Source: a virus
Taxonomy: Duplodnaviria; Heunggongvirae; Uroviricota; Caudoviricetes
Reading direction: 5' to 3' (one strand)
Length of the DNA stretch: 64,000 nucleotides
Virus record (IMG/VR): IMGVR_UViG_3300031994_002305
Coordinates: 37,073-101,072 of that record
The notes under the pieces were generated by a model. That model was not told the DNA's origin and searched no databases. It saw only the letters and a list, made by a program, of their open reading frames with translations. Both the position numbers and the translations under genes were made by a program. Shown piece after piece: positions 53,689-58,429 of the stretch (position 1 is the stretch's first letter; each line of letters opens with the position of its first letter).

Positions 53689-55004
53689 ATGAAACTACCA
53701 AAGAATTATTATTCTAAAATGCTTAAACAGGAGTTTTTGAAATATGAAGAAGCTCGTAAATCTGGTAAGTATAATATGATAATGGATATGAATGCTGTTA
53801 TTGGAGAATATGGTATTGGATTTAAAAACTATATTTATATAGTTAACAATTATTCAGAATTGGCTAAGAAATATTTGTAATATGAAAAAGGTTTTTGAAA
53901 CAAATCCAGAGTTGGCAAAATTTTCAACTGAAGATTTACTTAAGGAATTATTATACAGAGATAATGCTGGTGATAATAAATTTCATTTAGTCAGTGAATC
54001 TGTTACATCATATACATTTAAATTTTGGAAATTCGTATGATTAGAAAAGATACACCACGAGCAATTAGATTTTATAAAAATCGTCCTATTGTAGAAATTT
54101 ACAAAGGATATGAGATTCGCAAATATGAGGATATGTTTGAAGTGATTGCGAGTGTTGGCATTTATGGATTTGATTCAAATCATATTGAAGGTTGTAAGGA
54201 ATTTATTGATAAATTAGTTAAACTTGGAATTAAACAAGATGATGACGAAGAAATATCAAAATTTATTTTCCATATAAAACCTTATGATAAAGTTAATTGG
54301 AAAGAATTATGAGTAAGAAAAAATTCTATTTAGCAAATTCTGTAACATTGGAAATTTCTGAAGAATATATAGATGATAATTCAAAATATTTTGAATATAG
54401 TACACCTTGGAGATTTTCCAACGAAAATGAAGCAAAAGAATATCTTAAAGAAAATTTAAAACGAAAGATTAAAGCAATAGATAATCAAATTGAAGATCTC
54501 CAAATGAAACGAGATGATTTAGTTAATAAATTATTTAATATATGAGACGTGTTAATAGAAAAATAAAAAGAGGTACTTTGAATCATAGAAATGATCCAAC
54601 GGTACAACAATATGAAAACATATATCATATTGGACATGGACTTATATTTAGAGCTTTAACTTTATTTGGTGATTCTAAATATACTCGTAATTTATGCGAA
54701 TATATTAAAAATCGTAAGAATAATGAACCAAATTTATCAAAATATACTTTTGATGAATTAATGCAAGATTTTGAAAATGGTAATCATGATTTATTAATTG
54801 AAATAGTTAACGATTATGAGTGAATTTTGTGTAATATTATACTTATGTATAGGAGTTTTTGTTATAGTTTATGATTGGAAGAAAAATTACGAAGTAAATT
54901 ATAATATAGCAAAACAATATGGGGAAACTGAGGATGCAATGGTTTGTTTATATTTCTTATTTGGAATAATACTTTGGCCATTAATTTTAATGAAACAAAA
55001 ATAA
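53689..55004 (+). other. Run of about 6 small hypothetical CDSs
   Basis: Dense + strand ORFs. Confidence 0.7.
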
Positions 55005-55049
55005 TGTTTTACTATATTTAATATAATTTACCATGAATTGGTAAATGAT

Positions 55050-55122
55050 GCCCCGGTAGTTCAACGGATTAGAATACATCACTACGGATGATATGATGAG
55101 GGTTCGATTCCTTCTCGGGGTA
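55050..55122 (+). tRNA. tRNA-Arg(ACG)
   Basis: Cloverleaf: acceptor GCCCCGG/TCGGGGT, anticodon arm CATCA-CTACGGA-TGATA, T-loop TTCGATT; no encoded CCA. Confidence 0.88.
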
Positions 55123-55123
55123 C

Positions 55124-55239
55124 AATTGAGGATGCTGAAAAAGACTACGATAGTTTAAGGGTAAAATACCTCCTGTTAGAGGGGATGCTGGTTCGAATCC
55201 ACTGAATGCTTGATTAGGTTACTTGCAAGGTTCTCAATT
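55124..55239 (+). ncRNA. tRNA-derived structured RNA (D, anticodon-like GTT and T arms) inside a non-tRNA closing stem
   Basis: Stem AATTGAGGAT/GTTCTCAATT encloses TAGTTTAAGGGTAAAAT, CCTC-CTGTTA-GAGG and TGG-TTCGAAT-CCA. Confidence 0.5.
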
Positions 55240-55244
55240 AAAGC

Positions 55245-55343
55245 TTTATTTGTATATTGTAGTGTACAATGCAATTGCAGATGCCAAAGGATAAAGGTTG
55301 AGGAGATAGGTTACGGCTCCTTATAAAAACAAATTGCGTAGCC
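55245..55343 (+). ncRNA. Candidate structured RNA ending in an H-type pseudoknot
   Basis: TGAGGAG/CTCCTTA plus GGTTACG/CGTAGCC with an A-rich linker; upstream CTTTATT/GATAAAG domain. Confidence 0.45.
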
Positions 55344-55349
55344 ACATTT

Positions 55350-55425
55350 GGCCCTGTAGTTCAACGGAATTTAGAACAGTTGGCTTCTACCCTTCAGGTT
55401 GGGGGTTCGAATCCCTCCAGGGTCA
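55350..55425 (+). tRNA. tRNA-Arg(TCT) with two U-U mismatches in the anticodon stem
   Basis: GGCCCTG/CAGGGTC, GTTGG-CTTCTAC-CCTTC, GGGGG-TTCGAAT-CCCTC. Confidence 0.75.
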
Positions 55426-55501
55426 CAAATTATTAGCTTAATGGATTATAACTATTAATTAGTTAAATATTATTTTTAATTAAATATATATATATATATA
55501 T

Positions 55502-55590
55502 ACACGGGTAAAGCGTAATTGGATGACCGCCCTGGTCTACGAAACCAGTTTATAGAAATATAATTGTGGGTTCGACTCCCACCTCGTGTA
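55502..55590 (+). tRNA. tRNA with Arg(ACG) anticodon and a long variable arm
   Basis: ACACGGG/CTCGTGT, CTGGT-CTACGAA-ACCAG, variable arm TTATA-GAAA-TATAA, GTGGG-TTCGACT-CCCAC. Confidence 0.8.
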
Positions 55591-55603
55591 CTAATTATAT
55601 AAT

Positions 55604-56386
55604 ATGGATAACATATGTAAATGTAAATATTGTGGAAAAGAATTTGATAATAAACAAAAACTTGGTGGACATATAATACATTGTGAAAAAAATCCTAATT
55701 TTGAAAATAGTAAAAAACAATTAGAATTAGCACGAAAAAATATTAAATTTATAAATAAACATCTACATTGTCAATATTGTGGAAAAGAAATTGCTAATAA
55801 TGGATGTTTAGTAATTCATGAAAAATCATGTATAAATAATCCTAATAGAGAAAAATGTCCAAATAGAAAAGGTAATGGTGGTAAAACAAAAGGTCATAAA
55901 TGTAAATGGAAAGGAAAAAATAAATTTAATGATCCAATATTAGCAAAAATATATAAAACATGGAAACAAAAATTTGATAATGGTGAATATGAATATATAC
56001 GTAATGGTCATAAACATAATGAAGAAACAAAACAACGTTTAAGAGAAATATTTGAAGAAAAAATAAAAAATCAAATTGGAAGTTTTAAATGTTTTTATGC
56101 AAAAAGAGCATGTGAATATATTGATAAATTAAATAAAGAAAAAAATTGGAAATTACAACATGCAGAAAATGGTGGAGAAATTAATTGTTTAGGATATTGG
56201 TTAGATGGATATGATAAAGAATTAAATATTGTATTTGAATATGATGAGCCTAAACATTATAAAGATGTATTAAACAATATATTAACAGATAAAGATATAC
56301 AAAGACAAAATAATATAATTAATAAACTTAAATGCGAGTTTTGGAGATATAATGAATATATAAATTTATTATATAAAGTGAATTAA
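55604..56386 (+). CDS. Putative free-standing homing endonuclease (two C2HC Zn fingers, NUMOD3-like motif, PD-(D/E)XK/Vsr-like domain)
   Basis: CKYCGK..H..HC twice, GHKHNEETKQRL, YWLDGYD....VFEYDEPKH...D..RQ. Confidence 0.7.
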   Translation: MDNICKCKYCGKEFDNKQKLGGHIIHCEKNPNFENSKKQLELARKNIKFINKHLHCQYCGKEIANNGCLVIHEKSCINNPNREKCPNRKGNGGKTKGHKCKWKGKNKFNDPILAKIYKTWKQKFDNGEYEYIRNGHKHNEETKQRLREIFEEKIKNQIGSFKCFYAKRACEYIDKLNKEKNWKLQHAENGGEINCLGYWLDGYDKELNIVFEYDEPKHYKDVLNNILTDKDIQRQNNIINKLKCEFWRYNEYINLLYKVN

Positions 56387-56564
56387 ATACTTGGGATGTA
56401 GGCTTGGAAGCGGCCATCATCTAAGGAACTAAAAGATATGATTAAAGTAAATGGTTTAATAAACTCCGATGGCATGAATTTGGAAACGCGTCCCCTTAAT
56501 TGGAAGCTGTCGGAAACGATTTTATCAAAGAAATAACATTTGCGTAACAGCGCACCAAGTATTT
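56385..56564 (+). ncRNA. Stand-alone RNA mimicking the 23S rRNA uL11-binding domain (H43-H44, GTPase-associated centre) with a 112-nt insertion
   Basis: GGATGTAGGCTTGGAAGCGGCCATCATCTAAGGAA ... TGCGTAACAGCGCAC matches 23S nt 1055-1104 (E. coli numbering, recalled sequence), closed by the perfect stem AAATACTTGG/CCAAGTATTT. Confidence 0.8.
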
Positions 56565-56571
56565 TATTTAT

Positions 56572-56643
56572 GCCCCGGTAATTCAAAGCACAGAATCTCG
56601 GTCTTCTAAACCGATTATGAGGGTTGGATTCCCTCCTGGGGTA
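56572..56643 (+). tRNA. tRNA-Arg(TCT) with a C19-G56 elbow
   Basis: GCCCCGG/CTGGGGT, TCGGT-CTTCTAA-ACCGA, GAGGG-TTGGATT-CCCTC. Confidence 0.85.
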
Positions 56644-56647
56644 CACT

Positions 56648-56823
56648 TAAGTCATTCGGTGTTATATGTAGGTTCAAGCCCTGCCGCAATGGAGATGACG
56701 ACGAACGGGAATGTATCTCATTAGTGTTAAATCCCGTCCAAGCCTTAATAGGGAGTTGCTAATGAGTAAGGTCGGACACTGTTAAATCTGTAAGTAGTAC
56801 GTAATGCTTATATGAATGATTTA
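56648..56823 (+). ncRNA. Candidate structured RNA with a T-arm-like hairpin and a pseudoknot
   Basis: Closing stem TAAGTCATTC/GAATGATTTA; GTAGG-TTCAAGC-CCTGC; CTCATTAGTG/TGCTAATGAG; ACGGGA/TCCCGT. Confidence 0.6.
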
Positions 56824-56830
56824 TTTAAAT

Positions 56831-57012
56831 AGGGATGTAGCTCAGAACTTGGACAGAGCGCGATAAAACGAAGATCGTGGTGGAAAATGTCTTGAAGGAG
56901 AAATCCAGGAGTTAAGTTTGCGGAAGCACTGAAAAGAGGTGAAACTCAAGTAAGGAAGCGCGTTTTATGTACCACCTTAAACATAGCGTGGGTTCGAATC
57001 CCATCATCCCTA
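56831..57012 (+). ncRNA. tRNA-like RNA (182 nt) with intact acceptor, D and T arms; anticodon/variable region replaced by a ~125-nt structured domain
   Basis: AGGGATG/CATCCCT-A, GCTC..GG..GAGC, GTGGG-TTCGAAT-CCCAT; inner ATAAAACG/CGTTTTAT. Confidence 0.75.
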
Positions 57013-57016
57013 CAAT

Positions 57017-57078
57017 GTGCTCGGATGGCCGTAGTTCCAACCAGACGTGGTAGGTGGTATTAAATACCTTTGGAGCAC
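57017..57078 (+). ncRNA. Candidate small four-way-junction RNA
   Basis: GTGCTC/GAGCAC encloses three short hairpins (GG-ATGG-CC, ACCA-GACG-TGGT, GGTAT-TAA-ATACC). Confidence 0.4.
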
Positions 57079-57148
57079 TATAAAAGTAATATGGGCCTCA
57101 GAAGCGTGGTAGAACTCTCATAGCTTCATTTTAATTAAACAAATAAAT

Positions 57149-57709
57149 ATGAGTAGAGGTTATAAAGTAAACAATTTAGTTTTGGATCATAACAAGAAAT
57201 ATTCCAAGATTACATCAGTGGATCTTGAAGAGAGATATGATAGAGTGTTTGGCTTTATGGTACGAACCTCACATCAATATGCTGCTGCACGAAAAGTTCG
57301 GTGGTATGAAGAATTTATTAAACATGATTCTCCTTATGTAAAAGAAAATAAAAAAAGATTTATGGAAGATATTGAAAGATATAAGGATAATTTAGATGAA
57401 GCCATTGAAAGGAGAATTTATTTGACTCATAAAGTTTTAAAGGAAATGAGTGAAGGTGTTATCAATACAATAACACAAGGTATTTGGCTTTCATATCCAC
57501 ATACAACAGAGGTTGTTAAAATTGATGAGCATAAAGATAAATATATTATATTGACTCTTTGTACTGGAGAGAAATTTTATGCATATAAGAAATGGATTGA
57601 ATATGATACTCCACGTGGAAGATATGATTACGTTAAGCAAAGATGGATAACAAAAAAGCCAATACATAAGCAATTTTATAGCAAACTTAAAATTTTGAAA
57701 AAGTTATGA
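57149..57709 (+). CDS. Hypothetical protein within the tRNA cluster
   Basis: 186-aa ORF whose TGA stop overlaps the first bases of tRNA-Arg(CCT). Confidence 0.7.
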   Translation: MSRGYKVNNLVLDHNKKYSKITSVDLEERYDRVFGFMVRTSHQYAAARKVRWYEEFIKHDSPYVKENKKRFMEDIERYKDNLDEAIERRIYLTHKVLKEMSEGVINTITQGIWLSYPHTTEVVKIDEHKDKYIILTLCTGEKFYAYKKWIEYDTPRGRYDYVKQRWITKKPIHKQFYSKLKILKKL

Positions 57710-57780
57710 TCCTATAATTCAACTGAATAGAATAATTTCCTCCTAAGAAATAAATATGAGTTTGAGTCTCATTGGGATCA
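57708..57780 (+). tRNA. tRNA-Arg(CCT) with an A19-U56 elbow
   Basis: GATCCTA/TGGGATC, ATTTC-CTCCTAA-GAAAT, ATGAG-TTTGAGT-CTCAT. Confidence 0.8.
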
Positions 57781-57788
57781 CTTAATAT

Positions 57789-57860
57789 GCTCCTATAGTT
57801 TAGTGGCTAGAACTATTATCTCGTAAGTAATCAGCATGAGTTCGATTCTCATTGGGAGCT
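57789..57860 (+). tRNA. tRNA-Thr(CGT)
   Basis: GCTCCTA/TGGGAGC, ATTAT-CTCGTAA-GTAAT, ATGAG-TTCGATT-CTCAT. Confidence 0.85.
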
Positions 57861-57877
57861 CATTTTTTATATAATAT

Positions 57878-57912
57878 TTGAATTTTTTATATTTTATTCT
57901 ATATTATATTTG
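57878..57912 (+). promoter_or_regulatory. Conserved phage promoter with overlapping TAnnTTTG
   Basis: TTGAAT-N16-TATATTATATTTG. Confidence 0.75.
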
Positions 57913-57931
57913 TAAATTTTAAAATATAAAA

Positions 57932-58429
57932 ATGGATAAGCTTAATAAGTATTTACATTCTATTATCGCTAAGCATAATGGTGCTGTGATTTATTCTAAA
58001 AGATCAACTTATTATCATTTATGTGGCAGAATAATTCGTGTATCTGATCATATAGGAAAAACAAGTGATGGCTCAATATCAATTATTTATGATGGTGCAT
58101 GTTCAGATAATTTTATAGTTCATGCACATGCAAGTGGAATGGTAAGTATTGTTAATTATGAAAATTTAAAAAATATAATTAAATCATTTGCAATTTTACC
58201 TGCACTTATTGGAATTACTTCTCAGGCATCAAATATTAATAAACAAGTAATAAATCAAAACAAAACTAAAGAAGAAACTAAAGAAGAAACTAAAACTGTT
58301 GAGATAAATAAAAATACAATTTTTGGAATTGAAAAATCAAAATTTACAGGCAAACAAATTACTAGTTTAAATAATATGATGCAACAATTCTTAAAGGTAA
58401 ATAGAGAAAATAAAGAAAATGAAAAATAA
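57932..58429 (+). CDS. Hypothetical protein (IRVSDH motif)
   Basis: 165 aa; STYY...IIRVSDH. Confidence 0.65.
   Translation: MDKLNKYLHSIIAKHNGAVIYSKRSTYYHLCGRIIRVSDHIGKTSDGSISIIYDGACSDNFIVHAHASGMVSIVNYENLKNIIKSFAILPALIGITSQASNINKQVINQNKTKEETKEETKTVEINKNTIFGIEKSKFTGKQITSLNNMMQQFLKVNRENKENEK

Follow-up and report, generated by a model that had tools for sequence, protein, structure and literature searches.

Structured RNA genes in a megaphage arginine-tRNA cluster

The window analysed here, a stretch of 64,000 nt that corresponds to bases 37073-101072 of the 376,291-bp virus record G000, carries at positions 55026-57130 a same-strand cluster of arginine transfer RNA (tRNA) genes in which other RNA genes stand between the tRNAs. 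Among these is a free-standing copy of the GTPase-associated centre (GAC) of 23S ribosomal RNA (rRNA), referred to below as the GAC mimic, which recurs in other phages. The source is a Lak-like rumen megaphage of roughly 376 kb, whose record holds 65 tRNA genes, one transfer-messenger RNA (tmRNA) and one tRNA with a CUA anticodon. Sheep and bovine gut samples have yielded near-identical contigs, from DNA as well as from RNA libraries, and the host is probably a member of the Bacteroidota. Likeness to the DNA of cultured or published phages in this region is confined to a 270-nt piece of an endonuclease-like open reading frame (ORF), which is held in common with Prevotella Lak megaphages.

The cluster lies apart from the main tRNA array of the phage at 328-347 kb. 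Within 55026-57130, ARAGORN and Rfam call three tRNAs only (Arg-ACG, Arg-UCU and Arg-UCU), and Arg-CCU and Thr-CGU tRNAs follow farther along in the cluster. The six other units named below are thus not standard tRNAs, and a search with Rfam 15 over 54800-58200, at E values up to 10, returned no family beyond tRNA. In order, the features are:

55050-55123, plus strand: tRNA-Arg(ACG), the first gene of the cluster (ARAGORN; Rfam tRNA model, 51.7 bits)
55124-55239, plus strand: U1, a stem-closed RNA with tRNA-like D and T arms (the elbow), a variable hairpin and an invariant 3' tail, UAGGUUACUUGCAAGGUU (homologues in the relatives L030 and L051)
55245-55343, plus strand: U2, an AU-rich hairpin and a GGUUACG/CGUAGCC stem, without a closing stem (weakly supported)
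55350-55426, plus strand: tRNA-Arg(UCU) (ARAGORN, Rfam)
55502-55591, plus strand: low-scoring tRNA-Arg(ACG) with a long, class-II-like variable arm (ARAGORN at lowered threshold only)
55604-56386, plus strand: homing-endonuclease-like ORF of 260 amino acids (aa), an insertion into the cluster, with a C2H2 zinc finger at its N terminus
56385-56564, plus strand: GAC mimic, with a closing stem (top of helix 42, H42), H43, an insert of about 105 nt and H44 (rRNA alignment, covariance model)
56572-56644, plus strand: tRNA-Arg(UCU) (ARAGORN, Rfam)
56648-56823, plus strand: U3, a 176-nt RNA of seven helices whose 3' hairpin loop holds a 6-nt palindrome (12 homologues)
56831-57013, plus strand: UT, with acceptor, D and T arms, a non-decoding loop and an extra domain of about 95 nt (five-sequence comparison)
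57017-57078, plus strand: U5, a 62-nt stem-closed hairpin RNA with a 6-bp stem (weakly supported)

A preliminary description of this DNA had pointed to GC-enriched non-tRNA units among the tRNAs, and this is borne out by a GC fraction of 0.38-0.50 in the named units, compared with 0.18-0.28 in the flanks and 0.269 in the whole genome. It had also credited most units with terminal stems of 6-10 bp of their own, which are present in five of the six and absent from 55245-55343, and had given the AT-rich spacers as 4-10 nt; these are indeed AT-rich and measure 3-7 nt. All units share the strand of the tRNAs and lie 3-7 nt from tRNA ends. Structural conservation across relatives holds for the GAC mimic, U3, UT and U1, whose helices covary, and is barely supported for U2 and U5. 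We conclude that the segments between these tRNAs are discrete, conserved, structured RNA genes and not spacer. Also supported is the view that at least three of them imitate parts of the translation apparatus.

A copy of the ribosomal GTPase-associated centre

The rRNA H43-H44 domain recognised earlier among the units is confirmed at 56385-56564 by alignment and by a covariance model. Aligned to an Escherichia coli rrl gene, positions 56394-56420 match 23S positions 1055-1081 (H43) at 24 of 27 positions, and the 3' end of the unit (GCGUAACAGCGCACCAAG) reproduces H44 plus the 3' strand of H42. An insert of some 105 nt, at the place of A1089 in rRNA, separates H43 from H44. The unit further shows the closing stem common to its family, here of at least 10 bp (partly read by eye), together with the H43 core, a C1082-G1086 pair and H44 followed by (A/G)CAC (GCGUAACAGCGCAC).

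The covariance model (R1) comprises 147 positions and was built from five family members, none of them from the clade of the window. Run on the window and on the whole of G000, it gives a single match, at 56386-56563 and over model positions 1-147, with 50.1 bits and an E value of 1.7e-12. On E. coli K-12 it gives exactly seven matches, all of them rrl genes at 23S positions about 1047-1112; this recovery of every rrl gene directly tests the family as a model of the GAC fold. The phages GAP32 and XacN1 give one match apiece. No LSU_rRNA match occurs in the window at E values up to 10, and the mimic is flanked by tRNAs and an ORF. The exact 27-mer of the window H43 is absent from 185,579 species genomes, so that recent copying from host ribosomal DNA (rDNA) is rejected. 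The Rfam model Intron_gpI likewise had no match in 54800-58200 at E values up to 10; the same model matched L031 elsewhere.

The mimic has the same secondary structure as the bacterial 23S GAC (H42-H44, E. coli 1051-1108, the 58-nt uL11/thiostrepton domain), keeps almost all conserved nucleotides (U1060, U1066, G1071, C1072, G1074, A1077, the 1082-1086 pair and the G-U-A of the H44 loop), and is found together with it by one covariance model. Unlike the rRNA domain, it is free-standing and phage-encoded, often among tRNA genes, with a variable closing stem of its own and a helix or domain inserted at 1089. It also has A1101 (GCACAC), and A1067 is relaxed, being G in 13 of 128 units (about 10%), the window included.

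Within the family, the window, L022 and L030 form a clade with G at 1067 and with a divergent, clade-specific junction, CUAAGGAAC...AUUUGCG; G at 1073 occurs in the window sequence alone. The inserted helix that begins after AAAGAGU and ends before CUUUGG pairs in one register in 23 of 25 members, and the window, L022 and L030 fail in that register. A loose end of an RNA-library contig (run X4) at 56392 carries a second mimic 3' end (UUUGGCGUAACAGCACACC) shortly before the start of H43, and some related phages may therefore have GAC mimics in tandem.

A family of GAC mimics in phages

A degenerate H43 pattern matched 29 viral contigs, 28 of which are not rRNA genes, the only true rDNA being that of L041. 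A scan with the mimic-specific 3' motif extended the family to at least 120 viral contigs and to 57 stretches in prokaryotic assemblies. From 200 loci, 128 distinct full units of 95-419 nt were extracted, so that the family has at least 128 members; these occur in phages and in prophage-like contigs, with one GAC mimic per genome. The 28 contigs of the H43 pattern that are not rDNA share one architecture, in which a variable closing stem leads into H43; then come UUAAAGAGU or CUAAGGAGU, 90-320 nt of insert, the 3' motif CUUUGGCGUAAYAGCACAC and the 3' strand of the closing stem.

Covariation indicates that this family is under structural selection. In an alignment of 13 members, nine of ten closing-stem pairs covary, and over the whole structure 92% of cells are paired, compared with 25-53% when partners are slid. 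Across the 128 units, pair 1058-1080 appears in all four Watson-Crick types (U-A 53, G-C 31, A-U 24, C-G 6) and pair 1082-1086 in three (U-A 62, C-G 38, A-U 12), while U1060, U1066, C1072, G1074 and A1077 are invariant. The closing stem has a mean length of 5.6 bp, as against 1.4 bp with mismatched partners, and the terminal stems comprise 92 distinct 5-nt strands with complementarity kept. The base of the inserted helix covaries as well (permutation test, 0 of 5000). The combination of a relaxed A1067 with an invariant core would fit selection on the fold and on uL11 binding better than selection on factor contact. The GAC core does not vary between the phages of Bacteroidota, Firmicutes and Proteobacteria.

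Association with tRNA genes is frequent, with tRNAs within 1.5 kb of 77 of the 128 units, on the same strand in 77 of 77, and 50 of the 128 units within 40 nt of a tRNA. Cultured phages also carry the element, where it is unannotated. A 36-nt core query matched Cronobacter GAP32, Pectobacterium CBB, Serratia BF, Yersinia fHe-Yen9-04 and several Erwinia phages; the Xanthomonas phages XacN1, XaC1 and XbC2; the Pseudomonas phages pf16, Milchi, Astolliot and UNO-G1W1; and Aeromonas 4_4572 and Paenibacillus Pd_22F. The mimics of GAP32 and XacN1 have no tRNAs near them; each occupies an intergenic gap by itself. The XacN1 copy (L044:2478-2840) lies 3' of a gene annotated as a 2'-5' RNA ligase and has at its end a strong intrinsic terminator of its own; its H43 has the compensatory change of U1058-A1080 to G-C.

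Inserts are conserved within subfamilies, and GAP32, XacN1 and L016 have the blocks GGGGAAGGACAAG and CCCUUAGAG in common. Three members of about 362 nt (L037:2367-2749, L173 and L189) display a copy of the sarcin-ricin loop (AGUACGAGAGGA, at most one mismatch) in a hairpin whose stem differs in each and covaries.

Rfam 15 holds no family for the element, and the seven member loci searched gave one sub-threshold LSU_rRNA match; the literature searched held no description of a phage GAC mimic. Neither the GAC-mimic family nor U3 appears to have been described before as an RNA class. Ribosomal-protein leaders (the L10 leader, RF00557, and the L1 site in the L11 operon) are likewise extra-ribosomal copies of an rRNA protein-binding site. 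These leaders, however, are cis-acting, lie upstream of ribosomal-protein genes and are loose mimics, whereas the phage RNA is a near-exact copy and stands not beside a ribosomal-protein gene but among tRNAs or alone with its own terminator. Neither in the window region nor in the seven member loci does the mimic match an Rfam leader model.

In the Prevotella phage Lak-A1, no GAC core was found by pattern at up to two mismatches. R1 gives an 81-nt GAC-like match there at L286:1501-1581 (MK250015.1:109894-109974), which at 22.7 bits is too weak to call and lies about 110 nt downstream of tRNA-Arg(ACG) and tRNA-Arg(CCU). It is possibly a related mimic that has decayed, in an Arg-tRNA setting like that of the window.

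U3 and the tRNA-shaped units

U3 was compared with homologues from related contigs and from a metagenome scan, in which 13 of 26 motif matches proved not to be U3. It is closed by a 10-bp terminal stem, and in the alignment of 12 sequences 97.7% of cells are paired, with 17 compensatory pairs compared with 8.0 +/- 1.8 after shuffling (reached in 0 of 500 shuffles) and at most six in slid controls. The 8-nt loop of its 3' hairpin (window 56806-56813) always consists of G, a 6-nt palindrome and A, the palindrome varying among homologues as UACGUA, UGCGCA, UGGCCA and UUGCAA. Because the inner palindrome positions cannot pair within one hairpin, loop-loop contact between two molecules is indicated, and U3 probably acts as a kissing-loop homodimer. 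The dimerisation initiation site (DIS) hairpin of human immunodeficiency virus 1 (HIV-1) is a kissing-loop dimerisation element with the same loop design, an 8-nt loop of purine, 6-nt palindrome and A; unlike it, U3 is a 176-nt phage RNA, and its dimer is deduced only from the four palindrome variants. The U3 hairpin UAGUACGUAAUG was considered as a sarcin-ricin copy and rejected, since only UAGUACG is in common and the loop behaves as a palindrome.

The reuse of T-arms suggested earlier is seen in U3, which holds a T-arm-like hairpin. Eight metagenome or viral homologues of U3 start a few nucleotides after an apparent tRNA 3' end, the gap in the window being 3 nt, and in L052 U3 heads a Leu-tRNA cluster. 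One RNA-library contig contains exactly 56648-56822 between flanks unlike those of the window.

The complete tRNA elbow that the preliminary description had reported is real in both 56831-57013 (UT), where the D and T arms covary, and 55124-55239 (U1). UT has a 7-bp acceptor-like stem, is called by ARAGORN only when introns are allowed and has no Rfam tRNA match. Comparison with L012, L022, L030 and L051 gives 48 pairs, nine of them compensatory, among which are pairs of the acceptor, D and T stems; UT has further homologues besides these. In the place of an anticodon arm is an arm whose loop of 7-9 nt contains invariant AAAACGA followed by A or G, which puts ACG where an Arg anticodon would sit, without U33. 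At the position of the variable arm lie about 95 nt of conserved, partly covarying structure. A match to the UT motif in L050 sits in unrelated sequence.

U1 has a 10-bp closing stem, including G-U pairs, and an Rfam tRNA score of 17.6 bits, under the 29-bit cut-off. Its T stem covaries (UGG/CCA and GAG/CUC), and the arm at the anticodon position is not conserved. A pattern for the 16-mer of its tail gave 27 matches, of which L030 and L051 are related on alignment and the others may be chance. Neither UT nor U1 is a tRNA in the sense of RF00005 at 29 bits or more and a 7-nt anticodon loop with U33: they keep the tRNA elbow but cannot decode.

Modularity and the remaining features

The composition of the cluster differs among relatives, which were reached through homologous proteins and their encoding contigs; a search of viral contigs for related loci by way of a neighbouring protein found none. 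Relatives hold differing subsets and orders of units. U1 is precisely missing in L022, and RNA-library contigs from related strains skip single units precisely, with joints 55125>55258 and 56386>56568. The endonuclease-like ORF, whose 3' third is 79% identical to Lak-A1 DNA, lies directly 3' of the long-arm tRNA-Arg(ACG) at 55502-55591. At the same site L012 has another ORF (a weak Pfam RAP match) and L022 has neither, which suggests that mobile endonuclease cassettes remodel the cluster. When the long-arm tRNA itself is compared by eye with L012:308-405, the stems of its acceptor, anticodon and variable arms all differ by compensatory changes, and the loop CUACGAA is conserved.

U2 is 89-93% identical in L022 and L051, with only three compensatory pairs among three sequences and a folding z-score of -0.77. 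U5 folds with a z-score of -2.26; it is near-identical in L012 and therefore shows no covariation, and a scan with its core pattern gave no matches. In the 435-kb relative L022, a different odd tRNA-like gene takes the place of U5 (L022:1962-2045) and is called by ARAGORN only with a 4-nt 'intron'.

Elsewhere in the genome, the main tRNA array (G000:328000-347500) has 43 inter-tRNA gaps of at least 90 nt, many with a GC fraction of 0.35-0.44 compared with the genomic 0.269, and further non-tRNA RNA genes are likely to lie there. The CUA-anticodon tRNA at G000:347128-347199 suggests TAG readthrough or recoding in part of the phage; the ORFs of the window are open under table 11.

Expression, processing and a proposed mechanism

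The promoter-like CTATATT near 55012, from which a single polycistronic transcript had been proposed, is not supported: sigma-70-type matches, that site among them, number 24 against an expected 20 +/- 4.9, in a scan that does not cover the type of the probable Bacteroidota host. Counts of promoters and of terminators were at chance level. Since only 3-7 nt separate the units from tRNA ends, with no change of strand, release by tRNA-end processing is proposed, and co-transcription with the tRNAs followed by processing by RNase P and RNase Z is plausible. The tRNA cluster of phage T4 encodes small stable non-tRNA RNAs (species 1 and 2), presumably released by tRNA processing and, like the units described here, encoded between phage tRNA genes; we know of no report of rRNA mimicry by them.

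On the reading that we favour with moderate confidence, the inter-tRNA RNA genes of this Arg-tRNA cluster would be look-alikes of the translation machinery that bind host proteins. The units would be transcribed with the tRNAs, be cut free where the tRNA ends are processed (by RNase P, RNase Z or RNase E) and persist as stable look-alikes that engage host proteins normally recognising rRNA or tRNA. The isolated 58-nt rRNA domain binds uL11 (L11) and thiostrepton, from which we infer that the phage RNA could bind free uL11, the likeliest partner of the GAC mimic; G000 itself has no uL11 gene. Other possible clients are translational GTPases, RelA and GAC-directed toxins, and the mimic would titrate or shield a GAC-type site. 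Tre23, which ADP-ribosylates H44 at 1095-1098, is a precedent for a GAC-aimed toxin (PMC8661411). For the tRNA-shaped units the partners would be proteins that recognise tRNA, namely ArgRS, TadA, anticodon nucleases or the Ro60-like protein that the phage itself encodes, and U3 would work as a kissing-loop homodimer. A decoy system, as the preliminary description had proposed, is plausible as one reading among several.

Several points weigh against this reading. RNA-library contigs from three studies cover every unit, which is weak support, such contigs being blind to strand, ends, level and true transcription, with DNA carry-over possible; depth differences between units and flanking ORFs, and uncovered bins, are not usable as expression level or absence. 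Release by tRNA processing is not a general rule, because the mimics of GAP32 and XacN1 stand alone. The putative functions are all deduced from mimicry, and relatives carry different subsets of the units, whose cooperation is at most putative. Two of the six units (U2 and U5) are without comparative support. Finally, the window clade departs from the family consensus in G1067, in G1073 (the window sequence), in the junction CUAAGGAAC and in having no canonical base of the inserted helix, and its partner could differ.

Alternative explanations

One alternative, which we consider unlikely, is that the tRNA-shaped and stem-closed units are Y-RNA-like partners of a phage Ro60/TROVE protein and, with RtcB, form an RNA surveillance or repair particle. 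The genome does encode a TROVE-domain protein (a 483-aa ORF, G000:130004-130333, 42.5 bits where the cut-off is 23) and, at G000:6722-7942, the RNA ligase RtcB (191.8 bits), and the relative G001 has both TROVE and a GAC mimic. YrlA Y RNAs, known from bacteria and phages, mimic tRNA and are closed by a stem (RF02553; PMC4201824), and a phage Ro60 binds Y-like RNAs and host PNPase (PMC12135203); like the units here, YrlA, YrlB and the Yrl1/2 RNAs of phage phiLo are closed by a stem, have D and T arms and occur in phages (PMC4201824; PMC12135203). About 36 kb separate the TROVE gene from the array, however, while a YrlA gene is as a rule no more than 4 kb from its TROVE gene and on the same strand (PMC4201824). 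The best matches to Rfam YrlA, 25.5 bits in the genome and 20.9 in the array against a cut-off of 69, are sub-threshold and tRNA-like, and comparable matches occur in 13 of 14 control genomes. A conserved Ro-binding motif is absent from the window units: the arrays have no common 'handle' motif, ACAGCAA is not enriched in the arrays of the genome, and GNCGAAN(0-1)G, although present in the window U3, does not conserve its final G among homologues. Moreover, the GAC family also occurs without TROVE, GAP32 having a mimic and no TROVE match; a TROVE search of Lak-A1 also gave no match. A distinctly doubtful alternative would reduce the GAC module to a handle that recruits proteins or lends stability, such as a cap bound by uL11, with the variable insert as the functional part, be it a scaffold, sensor or ribozyme. 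The size range of the insert, from well under 100 to over 300 nt, its conservation within subfamilies (the GGGGAAGGACAAG and CCCUUAGAG blocks), the covarying base of the inserted helix and the sarcin-ricin-loop hairpin of the three long members all speak for it. Inserts nevertheless have no family-wide motif and the shortest members (a 95-nt unit) have almost none, so that the GAC module is the only constant, and no Rfam ribozyme or intron model matches.

It is very improbable that the units are decaying tRNA pseudogenes with a captured fragment of host rDNA, or mere processing punctuation of a tRNA operon. Several units do contain tRNA parts, phage tRNA clusters turn over fast, a homing endonuclease is hosted here, and U2 and U5 would fit such an origin. 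Compensatory changes nonetheless keep the helices of the GAC, U3, UT and U1 units, the GAC core is invariant across phages of three bacterial phyla, its exact H43 sequence lies in no sequenced species genome among those searched, and a stand-alone mimic with its own terminator exists. We give least credence to small mobile cassettes (MITE-like or homing-associated) whose terminal inverted repeats would act at the DNA level and not as RNA stems. Units with terminal inverted repeats of 9-10 bp, the precise presence or absence of single units among strains and the adjoining endonuclease genes would be expected of such cassettes; against them stand the single copy per genome, terminal stems that vary in sequence yet stay complementary, covarying internal helices and a strand that equals that of the neighbouring tRNAs in every case.

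Implications

A broader proposal is one that we offer tentatively. Large phages may encode a free-standing copy of the factor-docking site of the ribosome (the GAC, sometimes with the sarcin-ricin loop) that captures uL11 and translational GTPases or absorbs GAC-directed defence toxins. In the phage described here a tRNA operon may supply it along with a dimerising RNA and with tRNA-Arg look-alikes that do not decode, the whole forming a coordinated decoy toolkit against host translation control or against immunity that targets tRNA or rRNA. Cultured carriers such as pf16, GAP32, XacN1 and Aeromonas 4_4572 make the idea directly testable.

A near-exact copy of a functional centre of the ribosome, encoded in trans and conserved in hundreds of phages whose hosts span several bacterial phyla, would be a new class of viral non-coding RNA, and it would give viruses a new means of disturbing translation, the stringent response or ribosome-directed defences. 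More generally, the 'spacers' of phage tRNA clusters may be a rich, unannotated store of functional RNAs.

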